The position numbers and the translations under genes were made by a program. Shown here piece by piece: positions 4,611 to 30,951 of a DNA stretch of 64,000 nt. The notes beneath the pieces were generated by a model, which saw only the letters and a list, made by a program, of their open reading frames with translations, had not been told where the DNA came from and did no database searches. The stretch spans positions 2,319,443 to 2,383,442 of the forward strand of contig OZ246889.1 of assembly GCA_965231825.1 (NCBI GenBank), in the 5' to 3' direction. The DNA comes from Acidobacteriota bacterium. GTDB taxonomy: Bacteria; Acidobacteriota; UBA6911; RPQK01; JAJDTT01. Positions within the stretch are counted from its first letter, which is position 1; every line of letters starts with the position of its first letter.

Positions 4611-4686
4611 GCAGAAACTGGCAGGGGCCGGCGAAATCGCCGGCCCCTGCCATGAGGGCGGAATCATTCCGCCTCCGTCAGGCGGT

Positions 4687-5669: not shown

Positions 5670-7595
5670 TCAGAGAACGACTCTTCCGTCGCCCTGGCGC
5701 CGGGTGATTCCCTTCCGGTCCAGATACTCGAGAAACGGGATGGCGTACTTGCGGGTGATCCCGAGGGAGTCCTTGAACTCGGGCACCGAAAACGATCGTC
5801 CGGGAGGGAACTTGATCTTGACCTCGTTCTTGAGACGTTGGACTTGGGACGGGGTCAGGACCAATTCACCGCCGACCCGGACCAGATCGCCTTGTTGGAT
5901 CAGGAAAAAATAGACGTCCTCGGTCCGGTCCGGCGGGTGGTGCAGCCGACGCTTCAGCTCCGTGAGGGTCGGAGGCCGGGGGAAGCTCTTCCGGAGAACA
6001 CCCAGAAGGGACTGTTGCACTGCTTCCTGAGCCGGGTTCAGACGGGGTTCCCAACCTCGCCGCATGACGATTGAGCGGTCGATGCGGATCAGATCGCGCT
6101 GCTCCAGCCGCCGTAGCAGGAAATGGAAGTAGTCGATGCGGGCGGAATTCAGGAACCGGTTCCGAAGCTCTTCCTTGGGAACGCCCGCCGCCAGTGGGTT
6201 GCGAGCGTGGCTCTCGTCCAGGTGGGCGAGTATCGACGATTCCAGATTTCGAACAGCTGCCCGCGTCACCGCCAGAGGCGGATCCTGGGGCACCAGGTCG
6301 AATTCCGGAAGCTGCTGCAGGTGCCTGAGAATACGCCCCGCCGGAGTGCCGATCCGGGCAGCCGTTTCGTTGACGTCGATTCCCATTTCCCCTTTGGACC
6401 GCACCAGGAACTCGATCCGAAGCGGATCCGGATCACGGTTTCCGGCTTCGAGCCCCGAATAAAGCGCCTTCGCCGGTAGCAGCTCCCCGGGAAGATTCCG
6501 GGCCCGGTGCCTGGGCGGGACGTCGTCCAACACCACTCCACCTCCGACGGTGACGGGTGGAGAGTCCATCCGGAGAATGAATCGGTCTCCAATCCAGCAC
6601 ACGGTCGGCTGCTCCAGACGGAGTTGAGCCAGGGCCCGTTGGCCGGGTGCCACCGTTTTTCCTTCCAGCGGATACACATGGCCCTGCCATTCTCCGCTGC
6701 CGTGGTGAAACCGGACCGGAGTCCGACGTTTGAGCGGCCGCGGAGCGCTCTCCAGTACCTTGATCGAGGCGTCCAGAGAACGAGTCGGACGTAGACCTCC
6801 GGGTCGGGAAAGGACCATCCCCCGTTTCAGGTCGTCCTTGCCCAAGCCCATGAGATTCAACGCAGTCCGCTGTCCGGCCACGGCCTCGCCGGCCTCCCGG
6901 TTGAAGATTTCGATGCGCCGGACCCTGCCCCCCTTTCCGGAAGGATAGATAGCCACGGCGTCTTCCTTCCGGATGATTCCCGAGGTCAGGGTGCCGGTCA
7001 CCACCGTCCCGAATCCTCGCTTGCTAAAGACCCGGTCCACCGGCAACCGGAACACTCTTTCGTGCCGGGAATCACGGTTTGGCTCCGATTTGGCGGCCTG
7101 CTCGATCAACGCCCTTTTGAGGGACTCCAGGCCGCTCCCCGTAATACTGTCCACGGCGATGACGGGACCGTTCTCGAGGAAGCTGCCCCGCGTCATGGTT
7201 CGAATCTCTTCCCGAACCAGGTTCAGAAGTTCCGGATCCACCGAATCACACTTGGTGAGGACGACGATTCCTCGAGGAATGTTCAGGAGCCGGCAGATGT
7301 GAAAATGCTCCAGCGTCTGCGGCATGATCGATTCGTCGGCGGCGACGATGAGCAGCGCCAGGTCGATTCCCCCGATGCCGGCCAGCATGTTCTTGACCAG
7401 CTTTTCGTGCCCCGGCACGTCGACGAACCCGATGCGGCAGGAGCCCAGGGACATGTGGGCGAAGCCGATGTCGATGGTAATCCCACGCCGCTTTTCTTCC
7501 GCCAGGCGGTCGGCGTCGATTCCCGTCAAGGCTTTCAGGAGGGTGGTCTTGCCATGATCGATGTGACCGGCGGTTCCGACCAGTATGTCTCTCAT
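5670..7595 (-). CDS. selB: Selenocysteine-specific elongation factor SelB
   Basis: [25 protein letters not shown]... GTPase domain, EF-Tu-like beta-barrel domains and C-terminal winged-helix SECIS-binding repeats. Start taken at internal M13 (7595), matching the canonical SelB N-terminus. Confidence 0.9.
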
Positions 7596-11699: not shown

Positions 11700-12318
11700 T
11701 CCCCCCTACCTCTACGGCATCTCACATCGCATCGCGTTCCCCGGTTTGTCGCCGGAGGATTATCTGGATCGGATCTTCAAGAGTCCCGCGCACGCCCTGC
11801 AGTGGCGGGAAAAGGACCTCTCGCCGGGGGAGAACCGCACCTGGGTCAAGCACGGTGTCGAGTTGGCGGGCCCCAGCGGAAAAGTGTTTCTGGTCAACAC
11901 CCATGTGGAGCTGGCCCTTCAGGAAGGGGCCGACGGATGCCACTTGACTTCGAAGCAGGATCTGTCCCACGCCATCCGGCTCCGGGAGCGGTATGGGATC
12001 GCGCCGTTTCTCTTGGGCAAGTCGACCCATAGCGGTGGTGACGTGCTGCGGGCGGCGGCGGAGGGAGCCGACTACGTGCTGGTGAGCCCCGTTCTGGCCC
12101 CGCTCTCCAAGGAGTCCCGTGCACCGGCTCTGGGTTTCCCGGCCCTGGAGCGCATCGTCCGTTCCGTCGAAATTCCCGTATTCGCCCTGGGAGGCGTCGT
12201 GGAGTCGGACCTGAACCGTATTGCGGATTGCGGGACTGCCGGCCTGGCCGGGATCACGTGGCTGCAGCAGGCGATCGAGCGGGCGATCGAACGGCCGCAT
12301 CCGAACTCGGAGCTTTGA
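11665..12318 (+). CDS. thiE: Thiamine-phosphate synthase ThiE
   Basis: LQWREKDL...VFLVNTHVELALQEGADGCHL...GKSTHS...GADYVLVSPVLAPLSK...IPVFALGGV matches the ThiE/TenI TIM-barrel family. The exact start is uncertain. Confidence 0.8.
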   Translation: MSIFSDIFRRHSPPYLYGISHRIAFPGLSPEDYLDRIFKSPAHALQWREKDLSPGENRTWVKHGVELAGPSGKVFLVNTHVELALQEGADGCHLTSKQDLSHAIRLRERYGIAPFLLGKSTHSGGDVLRAAAEGADYVLVSPVLAPLSKESRAPALGFPALERIVRSVEIPVFALGGVVESDLNRIADCGTAGLAGITWLQQAIERAIERPHPNSEL

Positions 12319-12371
12319 CGCCGGGAACGAGCTGAAACGGGGTTCCGCGGGACGCAATGGGCGCCCGCCGG

Positions 12372-13439
12372 CTATTCCAGGTCGCCGCCCATCCCCAGAC
12401 GGCATCCCTTGCGGGCGATCTCAGTGGTCTTTTTGGCCTCCTCCAGGGTCAGCCAGTAGTCATCGTCGTCCAGCTGGACCGCCAGCTTCTCCATGGTCTC
12501 CAGGCGCGGTTCGAACTTGAGGACGTTTTCGCAGAACCTCTTCAGGACCTTCCCGATCTCCTTGCCCGAGAGCCGGCGTTGGTTTGCCTTCTCGTCGATG
12601 TTGACCATGACGCCGTCGATGGCTCGCTCGTAGGCATGGAGCAGCTCCCAGTGGGCATGGAACGTCAGCGGACCCTCGTCCTCTCCGTTCCGCCTTTTCT
12701 TCTTCTTTTTCTTGCGCTTCTTGCCGGCCTCCGCCGGCTCCTTTCCCGTCAAGCGAGTCCAGCGTTCTTCCAGCGCTTCGAGGCGATCCTTCGCAATCTC
12801 CAGGAAGACGCGGGTACGCCTGTCCAGTTTCTGCGCTCTTTGGATCTTGGTGTATTCCTTGTCGGTGAAACCGTCTGCCGATTGGGAGGAGGAAACCGCC
12901 GGGGATGCCGGCGTAAACGGCACCAGTCCGTGAGCGATTCCGGGCACAGAGCCGGTGTCCGCCGGAGTGAACCGGCCAAAGAGTTGATCCAGGAGATGCT
13001 TGCGCAGCTTTTCCAGAGATCGGATACAGTCGTCGAAATCGTCCCGGAATTCAAAGGGTAGCGTGAGTTTGAGGTCGTCCATCGCCTCTACGGTGCGCCT
13101 CGCCCGTATTTCCAGGCGTTTCGTCTCCCTGGAGCGGCCGTCCTTCTCGCGGGTCGGGGTTTCCCGGAGAGCGTGTTCGGAGAGGGCTCTCATGTCTGTC
13201 AGCACCTTCAGGACGGACCTGAGGTCCGACTCCTTCGCGGAGGCCGTCAGAAGCTTGGAATTCCGCTCCAGGGCCTTCCGAAACAGTTTCATATGGGACT
13301 TGTAATCGTTCTTACTCCGATAAACGCGCATCTCGTAGAGGGTGAAGACCTGCTCCAGCGGCGGCAGACTTTCGGAGGCTGATCCGGCAGCAAGCGATGC
13401 CAGCAGCATCAGGAACGGAATCTGGAAAACGCAGGGCAT
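12372..13439 (-). CDS. Secreted hypothetical protein with a poly-lysine tract
   Basis: Signal peptide MPCVFQIPFLMLLASLAAGSASE. Charged coiled-coil-like body with a KKRKKKKKKRR run. Sits directly downstream of argS on the same strand (3-nt gap). Confidence 0.5.
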   Translation of the reverse strand: MPCVFQIPFLMLLASLAAGSASESLPPLEQVFTLYEMRVYRSKNDYKSHMKLFRKALERNSKLLTASAKESDLRSVLKVLTDMRALSEHALRETPTREKDGRSRETKRLEIRARRTVEAMDDLKLTLPFEFRDDFDDCIRSLEKLRKHLLDQLFGRFTPADTGSVPGIAHGLVPFTPASPAVSSSQSADGFTDKEYTKIQRAQKLDRRTRVFLEIAKDRLEALEERWTRLTGKEPAEAGKKRKKKKKKRRNGEDEGPLTFHAHWELLHAYERAIDGVMVNIDEKANQRRLSGKEIGKVLKRFCENVLKFEPRLETMEKLAVQLDDDDYWLTLEEAKKTTEIARKGCRLGMGGDLE

Positions 13440-13441
13440 GC

Positions 13442-15400
13442 CTACATTCTTTCCGGAACTTCGATGCCCAGGAGTGCGAGAGACCGCGTCATGGCCCGGA
13501 GCGCCGTATCCGCCACCGCCAGATAACAGGTCTGCTTTCGCGAATCCTTCTGCGAAAGGATGTGGTGGCTGTGGTAGAAAATGTTGAAGATCTGGGCCAG
13601 TGAGAAGGCGTGCTTGGCCAGATAGGACATTTCCAGGGTCTTGAGCGACTGTTCGATGGCGCCTTGGGACCTTCCGGCCTGAAGCAACAACTTCCAGATT
13701 CGTTCGTCCTGAAGCAGATCGGCGAACTGTTCCGGGTCTTCCCTCAGGTTCCTCCGCAGATCCTCCTGCCCGCGATCCACCGTGCCGTCCCCCTGGGACC
13801 GCAGCTTGCGGAAGATGTTGTTGGCACGCACTACGGAATATTGCAGATAGGGTCCGGTCTCTCCCTCAAAGCTCAGGGCCTCCCCGAAGTCGAAGGCGAT
13901 GACCGAGTTGCGGGCAAATTTGAGGAGGAAATACCGCAGGGCGCCAACGGCGATCTGGGTGGCGATCCGCAGACGTGCCTCGCGGGTCAGGTCCGGCTGG
14001 CGGCCGGCCACTTCCAGAAGTGACTTCTCGATGAGCTTGTCCACCAGATCGTCGGCCTTGACCCCCAGTCCCTTGCGTCCGGAGACTTCCACGTAGGGCC
14101 TGGCCCGATCCGGTTCCGAGAGCTCGATCCCCAATTCCTGGCTGCACTTGAGGGAGAGAGCCACCATTTCATAGGAGAAGTGGGTGGAGTGGTCGGCCGG
14201 TGTGTCGTGGCCCAGGCTGCGAAGGCCGTGGACCACCACCCGCTGAAGATAGGATTGGCGAACGTCGATGACGTTGTAGACGCTCTGGCCGCGTCCGAAG
14301 TCCTTCTCGATGTCGGAGGCTCCGTCGGAACTGGTCATCCAAACCTGGTCCCGGTCCGGGTAACGGTGCACGACCCGGTAGCGAAAGTCCTTCTCCAGCA
14401 AGCCGAATTTCCAGAGCTGATAGGCGATGTCCTTGCCGACGTAGGTGACGGTCCCGTCGCTGCGGACGATGATCTTCTCCTCGGGAGCCTGACCGTTGTC
14501 CCCGGGTAGCCGCATCACCCAGCAGCCTCGATTGGGTCCGTCCGAAACGAAGGTGATGGCCTTGCGCTGCTTGAGCTGGTCGAAGGCCTCGTCCCAGAAC
14601 CTCTCCCTCAGGATCTGGCTTTCGCGGGGAAGGACGTCGTAACGGACGCCGATGCGCCACATGGTCCTCAGGTGGGCGTTCACGATTCGCAGGGCAATGT
14701 GCTCGGCCATCCGGCTGGTCTCGCCCTCTCCCTCTTCGATCTCTCGAAGGGTGCGGCGGCGATGTTCGAGGCGCGAGTCCTCTCCCCCGTACCAGTCGCA
14801 GACTTGGGCATACAGATCCCAGCAGTAGTAATCGAAAGGCTCGGGAATCGCCTGGACCTGCTCCAAGCTCATATTCCGCAACTGCCGGAATCCGACCACG
14901 ACGTCGGCGACTTGAACGCCGGTGTCGTCGATGTAGTTCTGGATCTCTACCGAATGACCCCGGGAGCGCAACAGACGGCCGAAGGTGTCTCCCAGGACCG
15001 CGTTCCGGAGATGCCCGATGTGAGCCGCCTTGTTGGGGTTGATATTGGTGTGCTCGACGATGATCTTCGGCCCGCGTGCCGGTTCCGGCGATGCGGAGAG
15101 GGAGTCTTGGAGATCGGCCAGAAATCGATCCCGCTTCAGATAGACATTGACGTAGCCTCCGGCCGCCTCGACCCTGTCCATCCAGGGAGGCGTCCGGAAG
15201 TTGCCGGCGATCTCCAGGGCGATGTCACGGGGAGCTCGCCGCAGGCTCCGGGCCATCTCGAAGGGAAAGGCGAAGGCCAGGTCGCCGAACTCGATTCTCG
15301 GCGGCGATTTGGCGGCGGCGGACCCCAACTCCAAGGAAAACCGCGCGCGCACGAATTCCCGGAACAACGCCTCACTCTGGCGGGCCCGGCGCAGCAACAT
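13442..15400 (-). CDS. argS: Arginine--tRNA ligase
   Basis: Class I HIGH motif (HTNINPNKAAHIGHLRNAVLGD), an Arg-tRNA synthetase N-terminal domain and a DALR anticodon-binding C-terminus. 652 aa. Confidence 0.9.
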   Translation of the reverse strand: MLLRRARQSEALFREFVRARFSLELGSAAAKSPPRIEFGDLAFAFPFEMARSLRRAPRDIALEIAGNFRTPPWMDRVEAAGGYVNVYLKRDRFLADLQDSLSASPEPARGPKIIVEHTNINPNKAAHIGHLRNAVLGDTFGRLLRSRGHSVEIQNYIDDTGVQVADVVVGFRQLRNMSLEQVQAIPEPFDYYCWDLYAQVCDWYGGEDSRLEHRRRTLREIEEGEGETSRMAEHIALRIVNAHLRTMWRIGVRYDVLPRESQILRERFWDEAFDQLKQRKAITFVSDGPNRGCWVMRLPGDNGQAPEEKIIVRSDGTVTYVGKDIAYQLWKFGLLEKDFRYRVVHRYPDRDQVWMTSSDGASDIEKDFGRGQSVYNVIDVRQSYLQRVVVHGLRSLGHDTPADHSTHFSYEMVALSLKCSQELGIELSEPDRARPYVEVSGRKGLGVKADDLVDKLIEKSLLEVAGRQPDLTREARLRIATQIAVGALRYFLLKFARNSVIAFDFGEALSFEGETGPYLQYSVVRANNIFRKLRSQGDGTVDRGQEDLRRNLREDPEQFADLLQDERIWKLLLQAGRSQGAIEQSLKTLEMSYLAKHAFSLAQIFNIFYHSHHILSQKDSRKQTCYLAVADTALRAMTRSLALLGIEVPERM

Positions 15401-15604
15401 GGGCCAATGATATCAGACGTAGGAGGGGCGACATCTTTGTCGTCCACGGGGAGGGGAGTGGCTTTCAGGCGCCCAGTTTTCCGTGTAGCTGGGCGATTCG
15501 GCGGTCAGAAAGTGTAGAGGGGGACTCCGTCCCTGTTTTCCCTGTCGGCGGCAAGGATGCCGCCGCTCCCTTTCCATCTCCCCTCCCATGCTATTGTGTG
15601 CGGG

Positions 15605-16831
15605 ATGGGAACGGACGGCGGCCGGGATCGCATACTCTATTTCGACGCCTTCAATGGTGTGAGCGGAGATATGATTCTGGGCGGATTGCTGGATCTGGGG
15701 CTCCCCTTGGACCATCTTCGGCAGAGTCTCGCTTCATTGCCGCTGGAGCCCTATCGCCTCACCGCCCGCAAGATCGACCGGAACGGGCTCTCAGGGACCG
15801 ATTTCCGGGTCGAGATCGAGAATGGGCGGCACTCCCATGGCCGGACGCCCGGGCAGATCTTCGGGCTGATCGAAGAGAGTGGGCTGGAGGACCCGGTCAA
15901 GGAGATGGCGCTGTCGGTGTTTCGGCGGCTGGCCGGCGCCGAGGCGGCCGTCCATGGAGAATCGGTGGAACACGTTCACTTTCATGAAGTGGGCGCGGTG
16001 GACGCCATCGTGGATATCGTCGGAGCTTGCATCGGATTTCACTACTTCGGCGCTCTCCGTTTTTTCTCGAGTCCGCTGAACCTGGGCAGCGGCACCGTGA
16101 CCTTCTCCCACGGCACCTGGCCCGTGCCCGCACCGGCGACCGCTGAGTTGGTCCGCGGCTATCCCGTGGTCATGGGGGAGGTGCAGGCGGAGCTGACGAC
16201 GCCCACCGGGGCGGCCATCGTCACCACGCTGGCGGCAGCCGGCGCCGCGACGCCCGTCTGGACTCTGGATCGATGGGGCTTCGGGGCCGGAGACCGGGAG
16301 TTGCCCGGAATTCCCAACATGTTGAGGCTGGTTCTGGGCCGTGAAGCCGGTGGAGAACAAGCCTCCCCGGCGGCCGCCGAAGGAGTGCGTGACGAAGAGG
16401 TCCTGGTCCTGGAGGCCGACATCGACGACCTGGATCCCGAAGCCATCGGTTACGTCATGGAGACGGTCCTGGCCCGAGGAGCGCTGGATGTCCGCTGCGT
16501 CCCCCAGCAGATGAAGAAAGGTAGGCCCGGCCACCATCTTTCCGTGCTCTGCCGCCCCCAGGACCGGGATCGCATGATGGGTCTCCTCTTCCGGGAGACG
16601 ACAACCCTGGGGGTTCGTTGGAAGCCGTGGCGGCGCTGGGTCCTGGAACGCGAGTTCCGGGAGGTGGAGACCGGGCACGGAACTGTTCGAGTCAAGGTGG
16701 GACGCTTTCGGGGAGAGCCGGTCACCGTCTGGCCCGAGTACGAAGACCTGAAAAGGATCGCCGAAAGGACCCGTCTTCCGTTGAAGCGTCTGAGACAGAT
16801 GGCGATCCGCGAGGCGACCGAGAGGGAATAG
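15605..16831 (+). CDS. larC: Nickel-pincer cofactor biosynthesis protein LarC (DUF111)
   Basis: ILYFDAFNGVSGDMILGGLLDLG N-terminus, which is the LarC/DUF111 hallmark. Start at internal ATG 15605 (MGTDGG..). Confidence 0.8.
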   Translation: MGTDGGRDRILYFDAFNGVSGDMILGGLLDLGLPLDHLRQSLASLPLEPYRLTARKIDRNGLSGTDFRVEIENGRHSHGRTPGQIFGLIEESGLEDPVKEMALSVFRRLAGAEAAVHGESVEHVHFHEVGAVDAIVDIVGACIGFHYFGALRFFSSPLNLGSGTVTFSHGTWPVPAPATAELVRGYPVVMGEVQAELTTPTGAAIVTTLAAAGAATPVWTLDRWGFGAGDRELPGIPNMLRLVLGREAGGEQASPAAAEGVRDEEVLVLEADIDDLDPEAIGYVMETVLARGALDVRCVPQQMKKGRPGHHLSVLCRPQDRDRMMGLLFRETTTLGVRWKPWRRWVLEREFREVETGHGTVRVKVGRFRGEPVTVWPEYEDLKRIAERTRLPLKRLRQMAIREATERE

Positions 16832-19756: not shown

Positions 19757-20755
19757 ATGGACGTGCAGATCAGCCGCCGCCTCACTCTGAAAGACATTTT
19801 CCTCCTGGTGAAATCGGATCTCGCCGAGGTGGAGATCCGACTCGATTCGGAGATCCAAAGCGCGATTCCATTGGTCAACGACATCAACCGCTATCTGCAC
19901 ACGAGCGGCGGCAAACGGCTTCGGCCGGCGGTTCTGCTGCTGGCGTCCAAGCTCTGCGGGGCCCGTACCGAAGCGGCGCTTCGGCTGAGCGTGGTCGTGG
20001 AGTTGATCCACGTGGCCACCCTGGTCCACGACGACATCATCGACAACAGCGACGTCCGCCGGGGACGGCCCTCGGTCAACGCCAAGTGGGGCAATCAAAC
20101 TACGGTCCTCATGGGGGACTGGCTCTACATGACCTCCTTCCAGATTGCCATGAAGGAGCGGTCGATGAGGATTTTGGACATCCTCATCGACATCACCCGC
20201 AAGATGGTGGAGGGGGAACTCCTGCAGTTGGAGCAGGAGGGGCGCATGGACGTCACCGAGCGACAGCAGTTGGAGATCAGTCTCTACAAGACGGCCTACC
20301 TTTTCTCCGGTTGCGGCCGCCTGGGAGCGATTCTGGGGAACATGGATCCGGCCCGGGAGGAGGGTCTCGCTCTCTACGGCCGGTCCCTGGGTTTGGCCTT
20401 CCAACTGGTGGACGACCAGCTCGACTATACCTCCGCCCAGAAGGACATGGGCAAGCCGGTCCTCAAGGACCTGGAAGAGGGGAAGATGACGCTCCCCATC
20501 ATCTTCATGCTGCAGCGGGCCCAGCGCGCCGAGACGGACTTTGTCCGGCAGGTGATTCGCCAGCACGATTTCACCGATGCCAACAAGCAGGAGATCCTGA
20601 GCCTGGTCTGGAAGTACGGAGCTTTGGATGAACTGAAGCTGCGAGCCCAGACCTACGCCCAGCAAGCCAAGGAAGCGCTTGCGGTCTTTCCCGATTCCAT
20701 CTACCGGGACGCCCTCCTCCAGGTGCCCGACTTCGTCCTGAATCGAAACAACTGA
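19757..20755 (+). CDS. Polyprenyl diphosphate synthase (IspB/HepT-like, trans-IPPS)
   Basis: First DDxxD (LVHDDIIDNSDVRRG) and second DDxxD (FQLVDDQLD) motifs. 332 aa. Confidence 0.9.
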   Translation: MDVQISRRLTLKDIFLLVKSDLAEVEIRLDSEIQSAIPLVNDINRYLHTSGGKRLRPAVLLLASKLCGARTEAALRLSVVVELIHVATLVHDDIIDNSDVRRGRPSVNAKWGNQTTVLMGDWLYMTSFQIAMKERSMRILDILIDITRKMVEGELLQLEQEGRMDVTERQQLEISLYKTAYLFSGCGRLGAILGNMDPAREEGLALYGRSLGLAFQLVDDQLDYTSAQKDMGKPVLKDLEEGKMTLPIIFMLQRAQRAETDFVRQVIRQHDFTDANKQEILSLVWKYGALDELKLRAQTYAQQAKEALAVFPDSIYRDALLQVPDFVLNRNN

Positions 20756-20784
20756 GGAGGGGCGACAGTCTTGCCCCCCTTTTC
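20756..20784 (+). terminator. Probable rho-independent terminator after the polyprenyl synthase gene
   Basis: GGAGGGGC-gacagtctt-GCCCCCC stem-loop followed by TTTT (20780-20783), immediately after the stop at 20755. Confidence 0.45.
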
Positions 20785-20897
20785 ATAACCGGCCGGGAAC
20801 CGGCGGCTGGGCGGTCCGCACCCCAAAATCCCCTTTTTTCTGCCAGGATTGTGCGTGGCCACAGACGGTGGGAGAGCTCTTCATGTCCTTCTGTTTC

Positions 20898-23402: not shown

Positions 23403-24509
23403 TCACTTCGACGCGAAGCGTGTGGCGACGTACTTCCCGGCATCGTTCTCGCTGAGCCGCACCGTGCCCGGGCCGCTCCGGACGTAGAGATCGCCCTTCC
23501 CGGCCTTCTCCAGGCTTTTCCATCGCAAGTAGACCGGCTCGGGACTTCGCTGGCAGCTCACCAGGCAAACGGTCTTGCCCTCCACAATCTGCATCCTGGG
23601 ATCGATGCAGGTGCCGGCCCGGTCGCCGAGTCCGTTGCGCACCACCTGGGCCAGGTGCAGCATGAACTTGTCGTCGGTCTCCAGGCGGTCATGCGCGATG
23701 CCCAGCACCTTGCGGTCGTCGTCCACGCCGATCAGGAGGTCCCCCCCTTCGGTGTTGAGGAATGCGGCAACGGTCTTGAGCGCCGCATGGGTCACGTGCT
23801 TGGGGTCCTTTCGATCCTCCTTCAGGTTCCAGCGGAGGCTCGACTTGAACTCCAGTGTCTTCGACTCCTGGTGCTTTAGCAATTCCTCCGCTCGCCGGTG
23901 CCGCCTGATGTAGTCGTCGAAGAGGAAGTTCTTGAGCGCCTGGCCGAAGTCGGGGTCGTCGGTGATCCGCTTGTAGAGGTCGAAGTTGGTCTCGACGATC
24001 TCCTGGATCTTGTCTTCCACCTTGGGGTCGAACGTCAGCCGCACGTTCTCGCGGGTGTTCACCCGGGCGCTGGCATCGAGGCCCGTGTCCCGGTCCAGGG
24101 CGGACCGGATCTGTTCCAGCGTCACGCGGTGTTCGCTGCCCAGGTTCAGACCGAAGAGCTCCAGGGGCTTGGGCTTCGGAGTGGCCGTGAAGGCGAACGT
24201 CGAGAGGTTGGGGAGCCGGCCGAGAAAACGCGGTTTCACATCGGTCCCATGGTGCTGCTTGAGCTTCTCCCACTTCTTCGGCTGGGTGGCTAGGAGGAAG
24301 TCGAGGACGTCGGCCGGGATCATGCAGAGCCTGCGGTCGTAGGCTTCGGGACGCCGCTTGTGGTAGCCGCCCGGCAAGGGATCATTGCCATATGCCTGCT
24401 GCGATTCCCTCACTGTCGTCGCGTCGCCCGGGCACGCGTCGGGCCCGTAACGCAGCAGCGCGCACTCTATCGCTTCCTCGAAGGCCCGCTCGGATACCTC
24501 CGAGCTCAC
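23403..24509 (-). CDS. Collapsed HsdR-like protein: HsdR N-terminal segment + relic TATP motif + C-terminal AlbA_2/Schlafen-like putative DNA-binding domain
   Basis: The N-terminus SERAFEEAIECALLRYGP...YDRRLCMIPADVLDFLLATQPKKWEKL resembles type I R-subunit N-termini. No PD-(D/E)xK nuclease core and no DEAD/helicase motifs I-II; only FAFTATP remains. The C-terminus ESKTLEFKSSL...TVAAFLNTEGGDLLIGVDDDRKVLGI matches the AlbA_2 domain. The ATG overlaps the hsdS stop (ATGA at 24506-24509). Confidence 0.6.
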   Translation of the reverse strand: MSSEVSERAFEEAIECALLRYGPDACPGDATTVRESQQAYGNDPLPGGYHKRRPEAYDRRLCMIPADVLDFLLATQPKKWEKLKQHHGTDVKPRFLGRLPNLSTFAFTATPKPKPLELFGLNLGSEHRVTLEQIRSALDRDTGLDASARVNTRENVRLTFDPKVEDKIQEIVETNFDLYKRITDDPDFGQALKNFLFDDYIRRHRRAEELLKHQESKTLEFKSSLRWNLKEDRKDPKHVTHAALKTVAAFLNTEGGDLLIGVDDDRKVLGIAHDRLETDDKFMLHLAQVVRNGLGDRAGTCIDPRMQIVEGKTVCLVSCQRSPEPVYLRWKSLEKAGKGDLYVRSGPGTVRLSENDAGKYVATRFASK

Positions 24510-25933
24510 GCGGTCTCCTTCCGGATGTCGATCTTGCCCGTGACAGCCGCAGAGATCAGGGCGGTGCGGAATTCTTTGAGGTGGACGATGGCTTGGCGTA
24601 CCTTCGCGATAAGAGTGTCGACTCTTGCCTTCTCATGAGCCAAGAAAGTTATGGTCGATGTTTGCTCTTTTACCGGCGGAATATTCAGCCAGACTTCTCG
24701 TAGCGAGTCCGAGTAGATGACGTCAATAGTGGTTGCATTGCTCATGAATCGTAGTTGATCGAGCACGATAGAGCATTCCTCGATCTGAATTTCGAGGAAG
24801 CGAGTTAAGATCCGGCGCCGGTCTGGTCGGACCCTCATCAAGCAAGGATGCAGAACGCCCCGCTCGGCCCCATCCGGCAGGATTGCACATCGCCCGATCG
24901 AGCCTTGCGTGGTGATCAATAAGTCACCAGGGAGGACCACAAATGCTCTGAGTTCTGCGAACTTCTCAAGCGAGACGTAGTTTTCACCACTCGAAAAGTC
25001 TCGATCAATCACGCTTCTTTGGTTGTATACCTTAATTTCGCCGGCCTGCATTTCAGAACTCTTGAGCTGACTTCCAAACGGCCCTGTCTTGATAGAGTCC
25101 TTGCTTGCTCTGAGGACGTGTTTCAGTTGCTTCACGTCCCAATGGGCCGGGGTCTGTCCCAACCACTCGATGCCGGAGTCCTTCATGGGGACGTTCGGGT
25201 CGAGGCCCCGGGTGATGGCCCGGGTGATGAGGGCGCTGCGTTTCTCCTGAAGCAACTCGATCAGCCGCTCCTTCCTCGCCACCAGCGCATCGATCCTTTC
25301 CGTTTCGCGGTCGAGGAATTTGACAATGGCGCGTTGTTCGTCTGACGGCGCCATCGGTAAGAGAATGGCTCCAAGAATAGAACCATTCAGATTCCCGAGC
25401 CCAGTTGTGGTTGACGAGAGGAAAATAAGCTGCTCGCGCGCAACCGGGCAGTTCATCAAATACCAGAAGAACCGGGGTAGGTGTTCGGCCGAGACCCTCA
25501 GGCGCTGCATGAAATTGGAGTAGCAGCAGTTCAGGGCTGCAATTGCTTCATCGACAACGGAGGTCTTCCCGATATGGTGTGTGCTTCCACTCGACTTCGC
25601 CACGAGCAGATCTCCCAATAACAGCTTGGCATAGGTCGCTTCGCGAGCGCTGAGTCGCCTTTGAGCTGGTTCTGTAATCCTCCACGCGCCACGCTTGGTT
25701 TGGTCGGTAGACCGCAGGACGATGGTTCCGTCGGCATCGAAGTCTTCACCCCAAACACCGCTGTCATTGCGAACCAGTGACGCCTTAAATGGCTTTGGGT
25801 TCCAATGTGCCGGAATCTTGCCTAGCCACTCGACGCCGGAGTCCCTGTACTTCGAGTAGGAAGGAAAGGGCCGTCGTTGAAGTTCGTCGATCCGATCATT
25901 TCCTTCGGTCACGCGGTCGGTCGCCTCAGTCAC
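24506..25933 (-). CDS. hsdS: Type I restriction-modification specificity subunit HsdS
   Basis: Two target-recognition domains, each preceded by the repeat DSGVEWLG.IPAHW (aa ~45 and ~265). Conserved central and C-terminal coiled regions. TRD DNA is visibly lower in GC. Likely GTG start at 25933 with a GGGAGG RBS; the ATG at 25981 is also possible. Confidence 0.9.
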   Translation of the reverse strand: MTEATDRVTEGNDRIDELQRRPFPSYSKYRDSGVEWLGKIPAHWNPKPFKASLVRNDSGVWGEDFDADGTIVLRSTDQTKRGAWRITEPAQRRLSAREATYAKLLLGDLLVAKSSGSTHHIGKTSVVDEAIAALNCCYSNFMQRLRVSAEHLPRFFWYLMNCPVAREQLIFLSSTTTGLGNLNGSILGAILLPMAPSDEQRAIVKFLDRETERIDALVARKERLIELLQEKRSALITRAITRGLDPNVPMKDSGIEWLGQTPAHWDVKQLKHVLRASKDSIKTGPFGSQLKSSEMQAGEIKVYNQRSVIDRDFSSGENYVSLEKFAELRAFVVLPGDLLITTQGSIGRCAILPDGAERGVLHPCLMRVRPDRRRILTRFLEIQIEECSIVLDQLRFMSNATTIDVIYSDSLREVWLNIPPVKEQTSTITFLAHEKARVDTLIAKVRQAIVHLKEFRTALISAAVTGKIDIRKETA

Positions 25934-26144
25934 CGCTCCCGCCTCCCGTCCGTGCCCGAATCCCAGGCCGCCACGGTCCACCCGCGGGCCAGACCTGGAT
26001 GAACGGGCTCTCCGCGATCAGGCTGTCGCAGACCGGTCCCAGGAAACGGCGCAGCTCCTCACCGACGTCCACGAGGCGATCCGGCCCATCGATGTCGGTC
26101 CCGATCTGCCGCCGCATCTCGCGGATCGCCTTTCGAGGAGTCAT
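25926..26144 (-). CDS. Small hypothetical ORF (72 aa) translationally coupled between abiEi-A and hsdS
   Basis: Its ATG overlaps the abiEi-A stop (ATGA at 26141-26144). Its stop overlaps the proposed hsdS GTG start (GTGACTGA). High-GC, Arg/Gly-rich, no recognisable domain. May be a non-functional relic (for example the stub of a deleted abiEii). Confidence 0.3.
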   Translation of the reverse strand: MTPRKAIREMRRQIGTDIDGPDRLVDVGEELRRFLGPVCDSLIAESPFIQVWPAGGPWRPGIRARTGGGSGD

Positions 26145-26797
26145 GCTGTCAGCACATCGAGTACCGGACCGACGAGCGACTTTGCTCGGCACACGTCGGC
26201 GGCCCGCCAGATCTGGTCGACGCTCGCCTTGCGGTCGCGCAGGGCGTCGCTTAGCGCCTCGATCGCGATGTCCTTGCCGACCAGCCGCCGGAAGCGGAAG
26301 CAGTCCACCACGGTGCGGGCCGGGCTCGTGATACGGACGGGGACCCCCTCGAAGGTCGCGTTCACGACGCCGTAGCGCAGCCTGACCCCGGAGAATCGCA
26401 CCACTCGGATCGGCAGCCCGGGCAGGCGGGGCGTGCGGGCCTTGTGCGGAATGGCGATCCAGACCTCGTGTGGGAGCTGCGTGCCGATCCCGTAGACGCT
26501 CAGGGCCGTCAGCAGGCAGACTACGGCGCTCGGGACCCGGGCGCACACGGCGGCCCGGGTGTAGTGCTCTGTCGGTTCCACGTGGGCGAGGCGGTAGAGC
26601 CCGCGCGCCACTCGCTCGACCGAACCGTCATCCACCAGGCGCCGGAGCGCACGTGAGTGGACGCCCAGAGCGGCCGCGTCGCGCGAACGGAAGAAGGTCT
26701 TGGAGCCGAGCCGCTGCAGGCTAGAGTCACCTGTCGGGGAATATCGCACTGAAATGTCGCCAGATGAATTCAGTTGTTTACCTTTCGATTCATGCAT
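26141..26797 (-). CDS. AbiEi-family (COG5340) antitoxin-like transcriptional regulator, copy A
   Basis: wHTH ..VARGLYRL.., then VVCLLTALSVYGIGTQLPHEVWIAIPHKAR...IRVVRFSG...GVPVRITSPARTVVDCFRFRR.VGKDIAIEAL. Same architecture as AbiEi. Confidence 0.7.
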   Translation of the reverse strand: MHESKGKQLNSSGDISVRYSPTGDSSLQRLGSKTFFRSRDAAALGVHSRALRRLVDDGSVERVARGLYRLAHVEPTEHYTRAAVCARVPSAVVCLLTALSVYGIGTQLPHEVWIAIPHKARTPRLPGLPIRVVRFSGVRLRYGVVNATFEGVPVRITSPARTVVDCFRFRRLVGKDIAIEALSDALRDRKASVDQIWRAADVCRAKSLVGPVLDVLTA

Positions 26798-27010
26798 GCC
26801 ATGAATATAACCGGTGTGAGCTGTCTAGATCAAAATGTCGATAACCATTAATATTTGCCGTCATTATCAGTCATTGGCCGGTTGTCTCGGAAAACAGGGC
26901 CACAATTTCCGTCTCCAGGATGTTCGCCTCGGTCTCCTCACCGGTCTCGCGACTGCGGGCGAGCAGCCGGTCGCGGACGGACGCCGAGATGTTCTTGAGC
27001 GGACGTGTCC

Positions 27011-27612
27011 TCACGACAGAACCGCTTCCATGTACGGCTGCAGGACCGTGCGCGCCCGGCAGACGCTGGCTGCGCGCATGATCTCATCCGGGGTGGCGAG
27101 CCGTTGGCGCAGCACGTCCCGGAGGGCCTCCAGGGCGGTGTCGAGGCCTAACTTGTTGCGGTACCGGAAGCAGTCGACGACCGTCCGGGCCGGCGATGTG
27201 ATGGCAACCGGCACGCCGAGCATTGGGCGGCGGCCGATCCCGTATGTGAGCATCGCCTTCGAGAACCAGACGACCCGAACCTGCGCCGGCACTCGGGCGG
27301 GGCGGCGCGCCTTGCGGTTGATGGCGATCCAGACCTCGTGAGGGGATTCAGTACCGATCTCGTAAACGCGGAGCGCGGTCATCAGGCAGACGATGGCGTG
27401 CGGCACGGCAGCAGCTACCATGGCGACCGTCTCCAGTTCCGTCGGCTCGACCTCGGCCAGCCGGTAAGGGCCGCCGCCGAGGTTCTCAACGGCTCCGGTC
27501 GCAACGAGTCCGCGGAGGCGACGGTAAGGGACACCGAACGGCTCGATGTCTCGCGGCCGGAAAAAGGCACCAATGCCGGCTGCTTCGAGCGCGGCCGCAG
27601 TGAGTTCAGCCA
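27011..27612 (-). CDS. AbiEi-family (COG5340) antitoxin-like transcriptional regulator, copy B
   Basis: About 55% identical to copy A (..GGGPYRLAEVEPTE..IVCLMTALRVYEIGTESPHEVWIAINRKAR..VRVVWFSK..VAITSPARTVVDCFRYRNKLGLDTALEAL..PYMEAVLS). Start taken at ATG 27612 (MAELTAAAL). The track start at 27733 would run through the upstream operator. Confidence 0.7.
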
Positions 27613-27628
27613 TGGATGTATAGTAATT

Positions 27629-27658
27629 TATGTCGGCATATAGGTAATAGTGCCGACA
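27629..27658 (-). promoter_or_regulatory. Perfect inverted repeat ATGTCGGCA-N12-TGCCGACAT just upstream of abiEi-B (candidate autoregulatory operator)
   Basis: Read directly: atgtcggcatataggtaatagtgccgacat, 9-bp arms, AT-rich spacer, within 20 nt of the ATG. Confidence 0.5.
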
Positions 27659-27729
27659 TTTTGTTCTTGCTTTGCTCAGGCCGCCATAGCCGTCGCTTCG
27701 CCTGTTTGCCGTCCAGGGCAGGCGGAGGT

Positions 27730-28158
27730 TCAAGGCGGGGCGAGCGGGTCGACACGCGTGACGGTGTCGATCTGATCGAAGTGCCGGTCTGCCGATAGCA
27801 GCCGATCGATGCCGTGGGCCTCCATCGTTGCGACGTGCAGGGCGTCCCGTGCCGGCAACCCGGGATGCTGCACCAGCAGTTCGACCGCACGGGCCGTCTG
27901 GGGTTCCGTCACCGGCAGGATCTCGTCGCAGATGTCAGTCACGGCCTGGTACACGGTCCGGGCGTCTTCGGGCCGCCTTCGGGGGGCGTGGTAGTGGAGG
28001 ATCTCCTGTAGGACTTCCGTGCTGGTGATCAACCTGGTCCCCTGCTCAGTCGCGGCCAGCAGAGCCCGTCGGCAGGCCTCCCGGTACTGGGCATCACTGC
28101 CCGCGAGGTACATGAACACGTTGGCGTCGACGAAAAGCGAGTCACGCACGCTCGTCAA
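27730..28158 (-). CDS. vapC: PIN-domain toxin VapC
   Basis: LFVDANVFMY..., TSTEVLQEIL, ARDALHVATMEAHGIDRLLSADRHFDQI: PIN-domain acidic residues. 4-nt overlap with the upstream antitoxin gene. Confidence 0.85.
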   Translation of the reverse strand: MTSVRDSLFVDANVFMYLAGSDAQYREACRRALLAATEQGTRLITSTEVLQEILHYHAPRRRPEDARTVYQAVTDICDEILPVTEPQTARAVELLVQHPGLPARDALHVATMEAHGIDRLLSADRHFDQIDTVTRVDPLAPP

Positions 28159-28460
28159 CTGTCCTCGTCACTCCCCAGACCTTCGCTGTTGTGGAGACAG
28201 TCGGTAGCCAGGCCGACCTTCAGCCGGCTGTACTGGCGCTCCCACTCCGGCAGCGATTTCGGCGCTGGGACCGCCCCCTTCGCGTACAGCCTGTCGATGG
28301 CCTCCAGTCGGCGTTGCTGCGCCTCCGGCAGAACGCAGTACTGCACGACGGCCTCCCGCACGACTGCGGCCAACTTCTTCCCTTCGCGTCGTGCAATTCG
28401 CGACACTGCCGCGTACGCTCTCGCATCGAGCGTCACTTGGACTCGCCGTGCACCTCCCAT
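28155..28460 (-). CDS. vapB: Antitoxin VapB (ribbon-helix-helix/CopG-like)
   Basis: MGGARRVQVTLDARAYAAVSRIARREGKKLAAVVREAV is an RHH N-terminus. Coupled to vapC. Start at internal ATG 28460, because the track start at 28481 lies within the promoter -10. Confidence 0.7.
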   Translation of the reverse strand: MGGARRVQVTLDARAYAAVSRIARREGKKLAAVVREAVVQYCVLPEAQQRRLEAIDRLYAKGAVPAPKSLPEWERQYSRLKVGLATDCLHNSEGLGSDEDS

Positions 28461-28461
28461 G

Positions 28462-28545
28462 GCCCGTGATCGTACAGACACATATGATTTGTGTCAACCA
28501 ATGTGACTCGATAAATTTGTGGTGTCAGATATGTGTCAACTCCTG
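28462..28545 (-). promoter_or_regulatory. Near-consensus sigma70 promoter plus direct-repeat operator for vapBC
   Basis: On the coding strand: GTTGACACA...GTTGACACAaatcatatgtgtctgTACGATcacgggccATG. The -35 TTGACA (28492-28497), a 17-nt spacer and the -10 TACGAT (28469-28474) imply a leaderless or very short-leader transcript. GTTGACACA occurs twice (28492-28500 and 28534-28542). Confidence 0.45.
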
Positions 28546-28627
28546 TGAATCACACGAAGGCTGATGGGGAGCGGCGACAGTCTCCGCTCGGTCTGCGTGG
28601 CCCGCAGCCGCCGCAGAAGGGCCGGCG

Positions 28628-30742
28628 TCAAACGCGCATCTCTTCCAGCATCGCCGCGATCTCCTTCTCCACCTGCCGGATGTCGGCCTTGATCTCTTCC
28701 AAGGGACGGGGCGGCCGGTATTCGTAGAAGTAGCGATTGAAGTTGATCTCGTAGCCCACGAGCCCGACCTTTCCGTCCTGGGGGTCCCGGCGCTTCGAAT
28801 CGATCCAGGCGTCGGGAATGTGGGGCCTCACCTCGCGCTCGAAGAACGACTCGACAGCTTCGCTGAGGGGCACGTTCTCCGTGTCGCGGAGCTGCGGATC
28901 GGGCTCGGGCCGGCCCTTCCGGTCCCGGCAGACCGCGGCTTCGGTGTTGCGCTCGGACAGGGCGGAGAGCACAGCCTTCTTGATCGGCGCGGTGAGTTTC
29001 GGCCCGGCAGTTTGCGCTGCCCGGGAGAGCTCGGATTCGAAGTCAGCCCGATCCAGGAAGAGCCGGTCGGGCAGACTCCGGAGGAGGTCGCGGATCGTGG
29101 CCTGCTTCTCACGGCCCGCCCCTTCGTCCTTGGCCTTGGCCGCGCCCCTCTTTCGCGACCGCGCCAGGTTGATGAAGGCGCGCTGGTCGTCGAGCCGCGC
29201 GATCCGCTCGGGGCTGGCCTGGAAATCGAGCCGGAGCGGCCGTTCGACCGTGATCTTGCGGAAACGGAAATGCGTGGCCGGGTAGATGCGGCTGACGACC
29301 ACCTCCCGCTCCTCGCCGTTATCGTCCACGTTGCGGGTCGCGCCGTCCTCGAATTCCGCCAGCAGCCGCAGGATGTCCTCCTTGCGGTCGAACGGGATCT
29401 CCCGGCGCTTGGCTCCCAGGCTCTTTCGCAGCAGGACCCAGAACGACGTGGCGTTGATGAGCTGGACCTTGCCCCGCCGCTCGGGCCGTTTCCGGTTGGT
29501 AAGCACCCAGACGTAAGTGGCGATCCCGGTGTTGTAGAAGAGTTGTTCGGGCAGCGCGATGAGCGCCTCCAGCAGGTCGTTCTCCAGAATCCAGCGCCGG
29601 ATCTCACGCTCGTCGCTGCCGGCATAGCCCGTGAAGAGGGGCGATCCGTTCATGATGATGGCGATTCGGGAGCCGCCCTGTGAGGGTTCCTTGGAGTGCC
29701 CAAGCATGTGGAGGAGGAACAGGAGCTGGCCGTCGCTGATCCGCGGCAGACCCGGTGCGAAACGGCCGGCGGCGCCCCGGTCGTGCTCGGCCCGCACCGC
29801 GTCCTGGTCGCGTTTCCAGTCCTTGCCGTAGGGCGGATTGGCGATCATGTAGTCGAAGCCGGTTCCGGCGTGCCGGTCGTTCGAGAGCGTGCTCCCAAAG
29901 AGTACTCTCTTCGCGTCGCGGCCTTTTTTCGACTTTATGAAGAGGTCCGACTTGCAGATGGCATAGGTCTCCGGGTTCACCTCCTGGCCGAACAGGTGGA
30001 TGTGAGCGCCTGGGTTCACGGGGTTGGCCAGACGCGTGCCCTCTCGTATCTCGCCGAGGGTTGTGTGCTCCTTGGCGATGGTGAGCATGCCGCCTGAGCC
30101 GCAGCAAGGGTCGTAGACGCTTCGCGCAACGCCCTTCTTGCGCAGTTCTTCCTCGTCGCCGGCCAGCATCAGGTCCACCATGAGATGGACCACGTCGCGG
30201 GGCGTGAAGTGCTCGCCGGGATTTTCGTTGAGTGCCTCGTTGAATTTCCGGATGAGCTCCTCGAAGATCGTGCCCATCGTGAAGTTGTCGATGGCATTCG
30301 GATGGAGATTCACCTTCTTGGGGTCGCCGAAGCGCTGCATGACCAGAAAGAGGAGGCCCGCCTCGTCCAGCTTGGAGATGGTGTTGTCGAAGTCGAACTT
30401 CTCCAGCACCTCGCGCATGTTGGGACTGAACCCGGCGATGTAGTTGCGCAGGTTCTGCGCGATGTGTGGCGCGTCGGCGAGCAGCTTCGCGAAGTCGTAA
30501 CGCGAGGTGTTGTAGAAGGCGAATCCGGAGGCGCCTTGAAGCAGTCGGTCGGGGTTTTCGATCCTGCCCGTGTATTTGGCTTGAACCTCCAGCACTTTCG
30601 ACTTGGTGGGGGCCAGTACGCAGTCGAGCCGGCGAAGCACGGTGAGCGGGAGGATCACGTCCTGGTACTTTCCGCGCTTGAAGGTGTCGCGGATCAGGTC
30701 CGCCACCCCCCAGATGAAGCTGGTGATCTCGCTGTGGTTCAT
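28628..30742 (-). CDS. hsdM: Type I restriction-modification N6-adenine DNA methyltransferase HsdM
   Basis: HsdM N-terminal domain (SFIWGVADLIRD), AdoMet motif I (DPCCGSGGML) and motif IV (NPPYG). Start at ATG 30742 (MNHSEITSF). Confidence 0.95.
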   Translation of the reverse strand: MNHSEITSFIWGVADLIRDTFKRGKYQDVILPLTVLRRLDCVLAPTKSKVLEVQAKYTGRIENPDRLLQGASGFAFYNTSRYDFAKLLADAPHIAQNLRNYIAGFSPNMREVLEKFDFDNTISKLDEAGLLFLVMQRFGDPKKVNLHPNAIDNFTMGTIFEELIRKFNEALNENPGEHFTPRDVVHLMVDLMLAGDEEELRKKGVARSVYDPCCGSGGMLTIAKEHTTLGEIREGTRLANPVNPGAHIHLFGQEVNPETYAICKSDLFIKSKKGRDAKRVLFGSTLSNDRHAGTGFDYMIANPPYGKDWKRDQDAVRAEHDRGAAGRFAPGLPRISDGQLLFLLHMLGHSKEPSQGGSRIAIIMNGSPLFTGYAGSDEREIRRWILENDLLEALIALPEQLFYNTGIATYVWVLTNRKRPERRGKVQLINATSFWVLLRKSLGAKRREIPFDRKEDILRLLAEFEDGATRNVDDNGEEREVVVSRIYPATHFRFRKITVERPLRLDFQASPERIARLDDQRAFINLARSRKRGAAKAKDEGAGREKQATIRDLLRSLPDRLFLDRADFESELSRAAQTAGPKLTAPIKKAVLSALSERNTEAAVCRDRKGRPEPDPQLRDTENVPLSEAVESFFEREVRPHIPDAWIDSKRRDPQDGKVGLVGYEINFNRYFYEYRPPRPLEEIKADIRQVEKEIAAMLEEMRV

Positions 30743-30951
30743 GCCGGGTCCGTTGAATTTAACAGATTGCCGGACTTGGATACGGAACAATGAACAGGCA
30801 CTCTGCTCGACCCCGATCCTGACCCTCCGAGGCCAACTCCAAAGACCGGGACGTGTTACCTCTTGTCAACACTGACCGGGCTCCGTCTGTTCGGCGGCGG
30901 GTATTCTGGTGTAGCCTTCGGGAGAATTCTGAAAAAGAGATGGAGGATCTC

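Follow-up and report, generated by a model that had tools for sequence, protein, structure and literature searches.

A type I restriction–AbiE block in an Acidobacteriota genome is probably a recently degraded copy of a widespread cassette

We analysed a 64,000-nt stretch of an Acidobacteriota genome (contig OZ246889.1, positions 2,319,443 to 2,383,442; the whole of this stretch is called the window here) in which eight open reading frames (ORFs), all on the minus strand, fill positions 23403–30790 at the coordinates given in a preliminary description of the same DNA. The order of genes given there, hsdM–vapBC–two abiEi genes–a 72-aa ORF–hsdS–hsdR relic, was borne out by Pfam and PADLOC matches as well as by the coordinates. 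That description went on to propose a novel defence module in which a methylation-only type I restriction–modification (RM) system carries orphan AbiEi regulators, with an AlbA_2 effector domain in the position of the R subunit. We consider instead, with a probability of about 0.85, that a widespread hsdM–abiEi–abiEii–hsdS–hsdR cassette has recently degraded here and that the block is thus a decaying defence island. As it stands in the window the block is neither a complete type I system (for want of HsdR) nor an AbiE system (for want of the toxin).

An orthologous locus retains what the window has lost

The comparison that carries this reading is with locus L003 (the loci compared are numbered L001, L002 and so on), which lies on an Acidobacteriota metagenome-assembled genome (MAG) chromosome (OY764083.1) and runs collinear with the window to the left and to the right of the block. 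The order of genes there is hsdM, vapB, vapC, abiEi-B, a 45-codon AbiEii-B stub, abiEi-A, abiEii-A, hsdS and hsdR::AlbA_2, and both abiEii-A (322 aa) and hsdR::AlbA_2 (1178 aa) are intact. Nucleotide identity between the window and L003 is 94% for mrcA, 90% for hsdM, 93–97% for vapBC and 84% for the 5' end of hsdR. A full hsdR and a full abiEii at the orthologous locus speak against a novel module, and because L003 holds both of them intact we read the state of the window as the product of three deletions and not as a design.

The deletion in abiEii-A covers 753 nt (251 codons; L003 positions 4915–5667) between two CGCGAxAT motifs, the first deletion in hsdR covers 1176 nt (392 codons; HsdR residues 96–487) and shows only weak microhomology, and the second in hsdR covers 1254 nt (418 codons; residues 510–927) with CTTCGG at both ends. 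All three are multiples of three and in frame, and two of the three lie at clear microhomologies. The domains removed are AbiEii (residues 40–264 of the intact protein by Pfam; the whole nucleotidyltransferase domain is gone) and, in HsdR, HSDR_N (143–230), SWI2_SNF2/ResIII (302–543) and a T1R_D3-like region (approximately 678–735), so that the hsdR deletions take the nuclease core, both helicase domains save for 22 codons and most of the helical domain. The first of them took the nuclease and most of the first helicase domain, and the second the rest of the motor together with most of the helical domain. No second copy of HsdR or AbiEii was found in the 64-kb window by tblastn with full-length queries of the same family, which agrees with the earlier statement that the window holds no intact R subunit and no AbiEii toxin. 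An HsdR with a PD-(D/E)xK nuclease and a superfamily 2 (SF2) motor is missing from the window, where only residues 1–95, 488–509 and 928–1178 are left, and the search recovered only residues 259–317 of AbiEii, with no AbiEii toxin (PF08843) downstream of AbiEi in the window.

Comparison with the related loci shows a history in three steps. The cassette in this Acidobacteriota lineage gained vapBC after hsdM, then a second abiE module that truncated the first abiEii, and in the lineage of the window three in-frame deletions removed the nucleotidyltransferase domain of AbiEii-A and the nuclease and motor of HsdR. L004 and L005 have an abiEi-B orthologue followed by an intact abiEii-B and no abiEi-A, and in the window, L003, L006 and L007 a second abiE module stands in place of most of abiEii-B. 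abiEii-A was lost recently, as abiEi-A still matches its L003 counterpart, which has kept its toxin, at 98.8% nucleotide identity. The truncation of AbiEii-B is older, since the stub is identical in L003. The abiEii-A deletion and the first hsdR deletion could also be a single patch replacement that imported hsdS, as the sequence enclosed by the two junctions has diverged further from L003; against this, the 5' end of hsdR is more diverged between other pairs of genomes too, and hsdS is a mosaic, its first half being 91% nucleotide-identical to the hsdS of L006 and its second recognition domain unique in the set. Mosaicism is usual for specificity genes. In L005 abiEii-B and hsdS are set apart by approximately 2.5 kb of additional sequence (3487–6027), which again suggests that cargo accumulates in the interval from hsdM to hsdS.

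AlbA_2 is the native tail of a widespread HsdR family

A search with the remnant of HsdR returned 1175 relatives. The last 250 residues are 70–93% identical in proteins of many phyla, and several of the aligned relatives share the same N-terminus and the same tail with differing internal gaps. The canonical arrangement is seen in L001, where the cassette reads hsdM(705)–AbiEi(218)–AbiEii(319)–hsdS–HsdR and HsdR carries HSDR_N, ResIII/SWI2_SNF2 and a T1R_D3-like domain followed by AlbA_2; HsdM of the window is 83% identical to HsdM of this cassette over its full length. GTDB species-representative genomes were scanned with the AlbA_2 tail as query, giving 80 loci of which 75 are not cut by a contig end. 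HsdR::AlbA_2 is an uninterrupted ORF of at least 1150 aa in 69 of these 75, the commonest length being exactly 1178 aa, and hsdR is broken in the other six (by a single frameshift in four and by 5' truncation in two). Most of the intact loci have abiEi and abiEii between hsdM and hsdS. Because the tail is part of a long intact HsdR in 69 of 75 loci, AlbA_2 is the native C-terminal tail of a 1178-aa HsdR family and no replacement for R. The relic that had been described as HsdR fused to AlbA_2 is indeed a collapsed hsdR by homology, but AlbA_2 did not replace anything in it; and the novelty claimed for the module gives way before the intact cassette in these GTDB loci and the full hsdR and abiEii-A of L003.

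A second scan, of metagenome contigs, used HsdM as query and was blind to the state of HsdR. Of the 34 loci long enough to be judged, about 30 have a full one-frame HsdR with its tail, three (two of them near-identical) have a tail-less HsdR and one is collapsed and frameshifted. The tail-less proteins (1019–1028 aa; L099 18249–21335, L130 9240–12299 and L131 7786–10845) end exactly where AlbA_2 begins elsewhere, which shows the tail to be a discrete optional module. At species level the cassette occurs in 150 or more genomes from many phyla, and it is present in at least 549 confirmed metagenome stretches. Similar cassettes occur in MAGs of Acidobacteriota, Gemmatimonadota, Chloroflexota, Gammaproteobacteria, Spirochaetota, Actinomycetota and Binatia, with identities of 68–93% to L003 for HsdM and of 78–98% to the window for the HsdR tail (L003–L082 from GTDB and L085–L164 from metagenomes). 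Similarity that is unusually high across phyla, together with the abundance in environmental metagenomes, points to extensive horizontal transfer of the cassette.

The hsdR frame is not of the usual length everywhere. It measures 1237–1355 aa and is open for approximately 60–180 codons upstream of the usual start in several loci, namely L024, L032, L033, L035 and L044 (ORF from 6686), L039 (from 6710), and also L015 and L053. L024 has extra HsdR N-terminal fragments further upstream (5362–5574 and 6209–6337). These long frames and fragments could be N-terminal extensions or leftovers of hsdS/hsdR shuffling.

What remains of HsdR in the window

The remnant is a 368-aa ORF (23403–24509, minus strand) in which three parts can be told apart by alignment to hsdR of L003. 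Part 1 (24223–24509) is HsdR residues 1–95, part 2 (24157–24222) is a run of 22 codons from the first helicase domain (residues 488–509) and part 3 (23403–24156) is residues 928–1178, comprising the last 95 or so residues of the helical region and the Schlafen/AlbA_2 domain (approximately 23454–23867). The origin from HsdR is established by homology, with 83% identity to HsdR residues 1–99 and 98% to residues 927–1178; over part 3 the amino-acid identity to L003 is 98%. Pfam places SLFN_AlbA_2 (PF04326) at residues 215–352 of the remnant (E 1e-19, 71.6 bits against a cut-off of 25.3) and gives no match to HSDR_N there, because only HsdR residues 1–95 survive and the match to that model sits at 143–230. 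NCBIfam has no name for the remnant and matched the full-length HsdR only below cut-off.

Within the AlbA_2 domain the remnant has the motif E215-SKTL-E220-F-K222, a Schlafen box (AAFLN, residues 248–252) and GVDD with D264. Across 81 homologues each of these elements is either invariant or conserved at 90% or more, and a profile of the tail family aligns to the nuclease lobe of SLFN11. An AlphaFold2 model built on the 81-sequence alignment has a mean predicted local distance difference test (pLDDT) score of 56.6, with residues 1–68 and 90–114 below 50 and a disordered N-terminal third. The ORF starts with a GTG that overlaps the hsdS stop codon and has AAGGAG 5 nt upstream, and on account of this strong Shine–Dalgarno sequence and the coupling to hsdS the remnant is probably still translated. 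Whatever is made from it cannot translocate or cut DNA.

Decay of the remnant or retention by selection

Two observations sit uneasily with a block that is simply decaying. When the tail was subjected to a branch test (250 codons, with L004–L008 as outgroups) the window branch was found to carry 2 non-synonymous against 18 synonymous changes (omega 0.035), which gives no indication of relaxed constraint; and if the three deletions were independent events, all of them would be in frame by chance in only about 1 in 27 cases. Given the 2:18 changes in the tail, plain decay requires the deletions to be very young, and a remnant that has been neutral since its deletion would place that deletion within the last 5–10% of the window branch. 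This leaves two possibilities, deletions of very recent date and a tail that still has a use.

Use of the tail would mean that the remnant, with what is left of the HsdR helical region and the Schlafen-like AlbA_2 nuclease, is a streamlined functional protein kept by selection. With the DNA-cutting motor discarded, it might serve as an RNA-cleaving (tRNA-type) effector of abortive infection, either by itself or docked on the M2S1 methylase. We think this unlikely, although a good deal can be said for it. The binomial probability of the tail changes under neutrality is 7e-10, the frame was kept in 3/3 deletions, and the start codon, the Shine–Dalgarno sequence and the coupling to hsdS were retained. 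The protein collection contains seven distinct alleles, collapsed in frame, in which both the N-terminus of HsdR and the tail survive, five of the seven with a 3' breakpoint at residues 899–927, and L002 and L083 share one collapse junction with an omega of 0.17 between their remnants. The E-x4-E-x-K motif and the GVDD aspartate, conserved at 90% or more and aligned to the SLFN11 nuclease lobe, point the same way; a preprint reports that a prokaryotic Schlafen domain with the same motif cleaves tRNA when activated (10.64898/2026.05.29.728809), and the helical domain at the C-terminus of HsdR has been proposed to touch the methylase (PMC5248579).

Other observations speak against a retained function. 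The searches that yielded the collapsed alleles used the tail itself as query, so that alleles which had lost it could not surface, and in the HsdM-anchored scan intact HsdR is the norm and the one collapsed, frameshifted locus and the three tail-less ones show no preferential retention of the tail. Preferential retention of the AlbA_2 tail was considered as a general tendency and is unsupported, the tail-anchored searches being biased and the HsdM-anchored loci mostly intact. A rule that deletions in this cassette family favour in-frame or coupled products was also rejected, since of the stubs that AbiEii deletions left at other loci only about half are coupled (four independent stubs coupled, four uncoupled). 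In L002 and L084 the remnant has neither an intact hsdM nor an intact hsdS beside it, and this tells against docking on the methylase being required; L083 is a 5x-coverage assembly in which the remnant is oddly more diverged than its flanks, so that the omega of 0.17 is weak evidence; and the AlphaFold2 model is poor. Degradation of the cassette, on the other hand, is supported by comparable decay elsewhere, in the form of abiEi without abiEii, AbiEii stubs and frameshifted or truncated hsdR. We are equally doubtful of the wider proposal that the 368-aa protein is made coupled to hsdS as an RNA-cleaving effector and that the intact cassette is a type I enzyme with a built-in PrrC-like tRNA-nuclease back-up.

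Three loci (L002 8808–11131, L083 4712–7032 and L084 6844–9011) combine a collapsed HsdR::AlbA_2 remnant with a Fic/DOC gene directly upstream of it, which codes for 386–403 aa and has a winged helix at its C-terminus. The two genes overlap by 4 nt in L002 and L084 and are separated by 77 nt according to the gene calls in the 5x-coverage L083. These loci show two differing collapse breakpoints and two differing genomic contexts; hsdM is missing from L002 and L083 and reduced to a fragment in L084, and of hsdS no more than a remnant survives.

A purpose-built module, in which a methylation-only type I system took up orphan AbiEi regulators and set an AlbA_2 effector at the R position, is far less credible than either decay or selection on the remnant. 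It would fit the present gene content, and a literature search found no paper on the parent cassette or on any HsdR–Schlafen fusion, but the AlbA_2 tail, the position of abiEi and the order of the genes were all passed down from the intact cassette, the 'orphan' parts are bounded by mapped deletion junctions, and the orthologous L003 locus with its full hsdR and abiEii-A contradicts it. We give least credit of all to the deletions being assembly artefacts or the consensus of a mixed population with the real genome intact, for although the window comes from a single 5.17-Mb contig, its protein cluster has no other member and frameshifts occur in the related long-read assemblies L001 and L083, three clean multiple-of-three deletions with two at clear microhomologies are an atypical error, the surroundings are collinear with L003 without other gaps, and comparable collapsed alleles are found in unrelated assemblies.

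The methylase genes and the junctions between the late genes

hsdM (28628–30742, minus strand) encodes an apparently intact type I N6-methyladenine (m6A) methyltransferase subunit of 704 aa with the motifs DPCCGSGG and NPPY; the longest ORF extends to 30790, and the realistic start is the ATG at 30742. The protein matches N6_Mtase (E 3e-53) and HsdM_N (E 2e-23) in Pfam, aligns end to end with MTase_I of PADLOC (E 1e-263) and is 91% identical in amino acids to HsdM of L003 (tblastn). hsdS (24506–25933, minus strand) encodes a full-length specificity subunit of approximately 475 aa with low-GC (guanine plus cytosine) target-recognition domains, protein residues 40–490 aligning to positions 5–441 of the 448 in the PADLOC profile Specificity_I (E 5e-107). 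The low GC content noted earlier for hsdS is real (0.52–0.57 against 0.60–0.71 in the surroundings). HsdM and HsdS would form a methylation-only M2S1 enzyme placing m6A on a bipartite target, and restriction and AbiE abortive infection are lost in the window.

The late genes had been described as stitched together by ATGA/GTGA overlaps. This is so for abiEi-A and the 72-aa ORF (ATGA, 26144–26141) and for hsdS and the remnant (GTGA, 24509–24506), but the 72-aa ORF and hsdS overlap by 8 nt (GTGACTGA, given the GTG at 25933 as the hsdS start) and not by a 4-nt GTGA. Translational coupling of the late genes, also proposed earlier, is supported by these overlaps. No ORF of the block has the domains of PrrC or RloC (an ABC-ATPase N-terminus with an anticodon-nuclease C-terminus).

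Two AbiEi regulators and two broken AbiEii toxins

Both AbiE modules of the window have kept the antitoxin/regulator and lost the toxin. abiEi-B (27011–27613, minus strand; 200 aa) matches AbiEi of PADLOC (E 3e-60) with no match in Pfam, and is 95% identical to the L003 copy by tblastn (96% in nucleotides). abiEi-A (26141–26797, minus strand; 218 aa) matches AbiEi_4 and AbiEi_1 in Pfam and AbiEi in PADLOC (E 6e-68). The two proteins are 55% identical, as befits the paralogues that they had been taken for.

The toxin remains had not been recognized. abiEi-B is followed by a 45-codon abiEii-B stub (26877–27014, minus strand) that was previously missed; its GTGA start overlaps the abiEi-B stop, its first 27 aa are an AbiEii N-terminus (BLASTP E 3e-4) with divergent sequence afterwards, and its start matches the full-length AbiEii-B of L004. 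The 72-aa ORF after abiEi-A (25926–26144, minus strand), formerly seen only as a small coupled ORF, is the collapsed abiEii-A, with the N-terminal 8 residues of AbiEii in frame with the last 64 and a match to AbiEii residues 258–315 (BLASTP E 1e-22). Neither the stub nor the 72-aa ORF gives a Pfam or PADLOC match. Losses of this kind recur among the other loci: abiEi stands without abiEii directly before hsdS in nine, and in four only a C-terminal stub of AbiEii is left after hsdM.

Directly upstream of abiEi-B is a perfect inverted repeat, ATGTCGGCA-N12-TGCCGACAT (27630–27659), which is a predicted AbiEi-type operator; the repeat, with its 9-nt arms, recurs upstream of abiEi in many loci and across phyla. 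Upstream of abiEi-A (26804–26865, minus strand) pattern matching gives a promoter-like site (TTGATC-18-TATATT, 26833–26804) and a degenerate AbiEi-type palindrome (26834–26865). Each AbiEi would repress its own promoter through the conserved inverted repeats. Expression of the AbiEii stub, hsdS and the remnant is probably under the abiEi-A promoter as well, the likely start of a transcript that runs from abiEi-A through to the remnant. In the intact cassette abiEi, abiEii, hsdS and hsdR overlap by 4 nt, and for this reason AbiEi is likely to control how strongly hsdS and hsdR are expressed too, which would explain why abiEi so often outlasts its toxin.

The vapBC pair and the surroundings of the block

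Between hsdM and the AbiE modules lies a vapBC pair. vapB (28155–28460, minus strand) encodes a putative RHH-type antitoxin (101 aa, with the ATG of position 28460 as start). The match to RHH_1 reaches 18.9 bits, slightly under the Pfam cut-off of 20.5, and its size and its position upstream of the PIN gene vapC, which it overlaps by TTGA, fit an antitoxin. vapC (27730–28158, minus strand) encodes a PIN-domain toxin of 142 aa (E 2.3e-17, 64 bits against a cut-off of 23.6). Identity to the L003 orthologues is 86% for VapB and 97% for VapC. Of the domains named in the preliminary description, Pfam thus recovers AlbA_2, AbiEi_4 (in abiEi-A) and PIN, with RHH_1 below threshold and HSDR_N silent. 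The promoter region (28469–28551, minus strand), delimited by promoter scan and repeat search, contains TTGACA-17-TACGAT (28497–28469), which matches 10 of 12 consensus positions and in this agrees with the near-consensus promoter reported before; repeated GTGTCAAC/GACACA elements, present as direct and inverted repeats, are candidate operators. VapBC is most likely an ordinary type II toxin–antitoxin pair with its own promoter, apparently intact. Among the GTDB loci surveyed vapBC is found 3' of hsdM only in the window and its closest relatives, L003–L008.

In L001 a GmrSD-type (DUF262/DUF1524) gene, a helix–turn–helix gene and an RHH–PIN pair come after the cassette (12015–14836). The pair is 73% nucleotide-identical to vapBC of the window, and this resemblance indicates that the same vapBC module sits at different positions in related islands.

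The block is flanked by a class A penicillin-binding protein (with Transgly and Transpeptidase domains) and a BNR-repeat protein, in keeping with the mrcA and BNR flanks named earlier. Just beyond mrcA, L003 has approximately 1.4 kb extra (13452–14838, opposite window 20755–20866). A window segment of approximately 210 bp (15578–15786) matches three places in L003 within approximately 19825–20750 (the first running to 20033, the others at 20218–20426 and 20611–20750), spaced by approximately 393 bp, which suggests a tandemly repeated segment in L003.

Relation to described systems

In the EcoprrI–PrrC system a tRNA-directed nuclease is genetically wired into a type IC RM operon and guards restriction (PMC12707154). 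The intact parent cassette is alike in bearing a Schlafen-like nuclease domain, here on HsdR, for which a comparable back-up role may be inferred. PrrC is, however, a separate protein with an ABC-ATPase and a nuclease, encoded between the hsd genes, whereas the candidate nuclease of the cassette has the unrelated AlbA_2 fold and is fused to the end of HsdR; in the window, moreover, the restriction enzyme to be guarded is destroyed, and the resemblance is one of functional analogy only.

Toxin–antitoxin genes have been described inside or beside other type I operons: DarTG2 is nested in the RRDM type I island of enteropathogenic Escherichia coli and co-regulated with it (PMC12255303), and in Mycobacterium tuberculosis vapC21 adjoins hsdS.1 and hsdM, its deletion shifting their expression (PMC7517352). 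The window shares with both the placing of toxin–antitoxin pairs within a type I operon. It differs from the DarTG2 island in nesting AbiE (type IV) and VapBC, and in its candidate regulator, which is AbiEi where the DarTG2 island has RptR. The type I system of M. tuberculosis is likewise not known to include an hsdR. What sets the window apart from both is that its methylation-only state comes from recent deletions whose positions follow from comparison with a sister genome.

The AbiE systems of Streptococcus agalactiae and M. tuberculosis (Rv2827c–Rv2826c) consist of bicistronic, overlapping abiEi and abiEii genes, with AbiEi autoregulating through inverted repeats (PMC3985639, PMC7319586). 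The window likewise has abiEi, in two copies, one of them under a perfect 9-nt inverted repeat that is conserved in the family and predicted to be an operator. Here the toxins are gone, however, leaving the 45-codon stub and the 72-aa N/C-terminal fusion, and the cassette family chains abiE translationally to hsdS and hsdR, an arrangement absent from described AbiE systems.

Schlafen modules are reported in the preprint cited above to be exchanged between Argonaute, NACHT and RM systems and to cleave tRNA on activation, and Schlafen–ATPase ('Schlatpase') modules to be fused to a type I specificity subunit in Poribacteria (10.64898/2026.05.29.728809). SLFN-pAgo and Schlatpase share with the remnant the Pfam domain, the E-x4-(D/E)-x-K motif and the Schlafen box; unlike Schlatpase, AlbA_2 of the cassette is without a GHKL ATPase partner and sits on the C-terminus of HsdR rather than on HsdS. 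The consulted portion of the preprint does not mention an HsdR–AlbA_2 fusion. The nearest plasmid matches to AlbA_2 show less than 40% identity and occur as fusions with DUF262 or N6-methylase proteins; those of Sinorhizobium, Haloquadratum and Pseudoalteromonas (31–36% identity) lie within genes that carry a DUF262 or N-6 DNA methylase annotation. Since such distant AlbA_2 domains sit in genes of this kind, fusion of AlbA_2 to restriction-type enzymes seems to be a recurring theme.

Implications

On the reading that we favour the block is a young wreck of a common cassette, and annotation pipelines should not count it as new, as restriction-active or as AbiE-active. The window and L003 together make a natural before-and-after pair. 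The parent cassette is the more interesting object, with AbiE chained between hsdM and hsdS and a Schlafen-type domain with an intact motif on HsdR, and it appears to be a variant for which we could not find a description in the searched literature, having AbiE inside the operon as well as a Schlafen-type domain on HsdR. Should the tail prove to be an RNase, it would be a second, independent solution to the idea embodied in PrrC, in which restriction is backed by translation shut-off.

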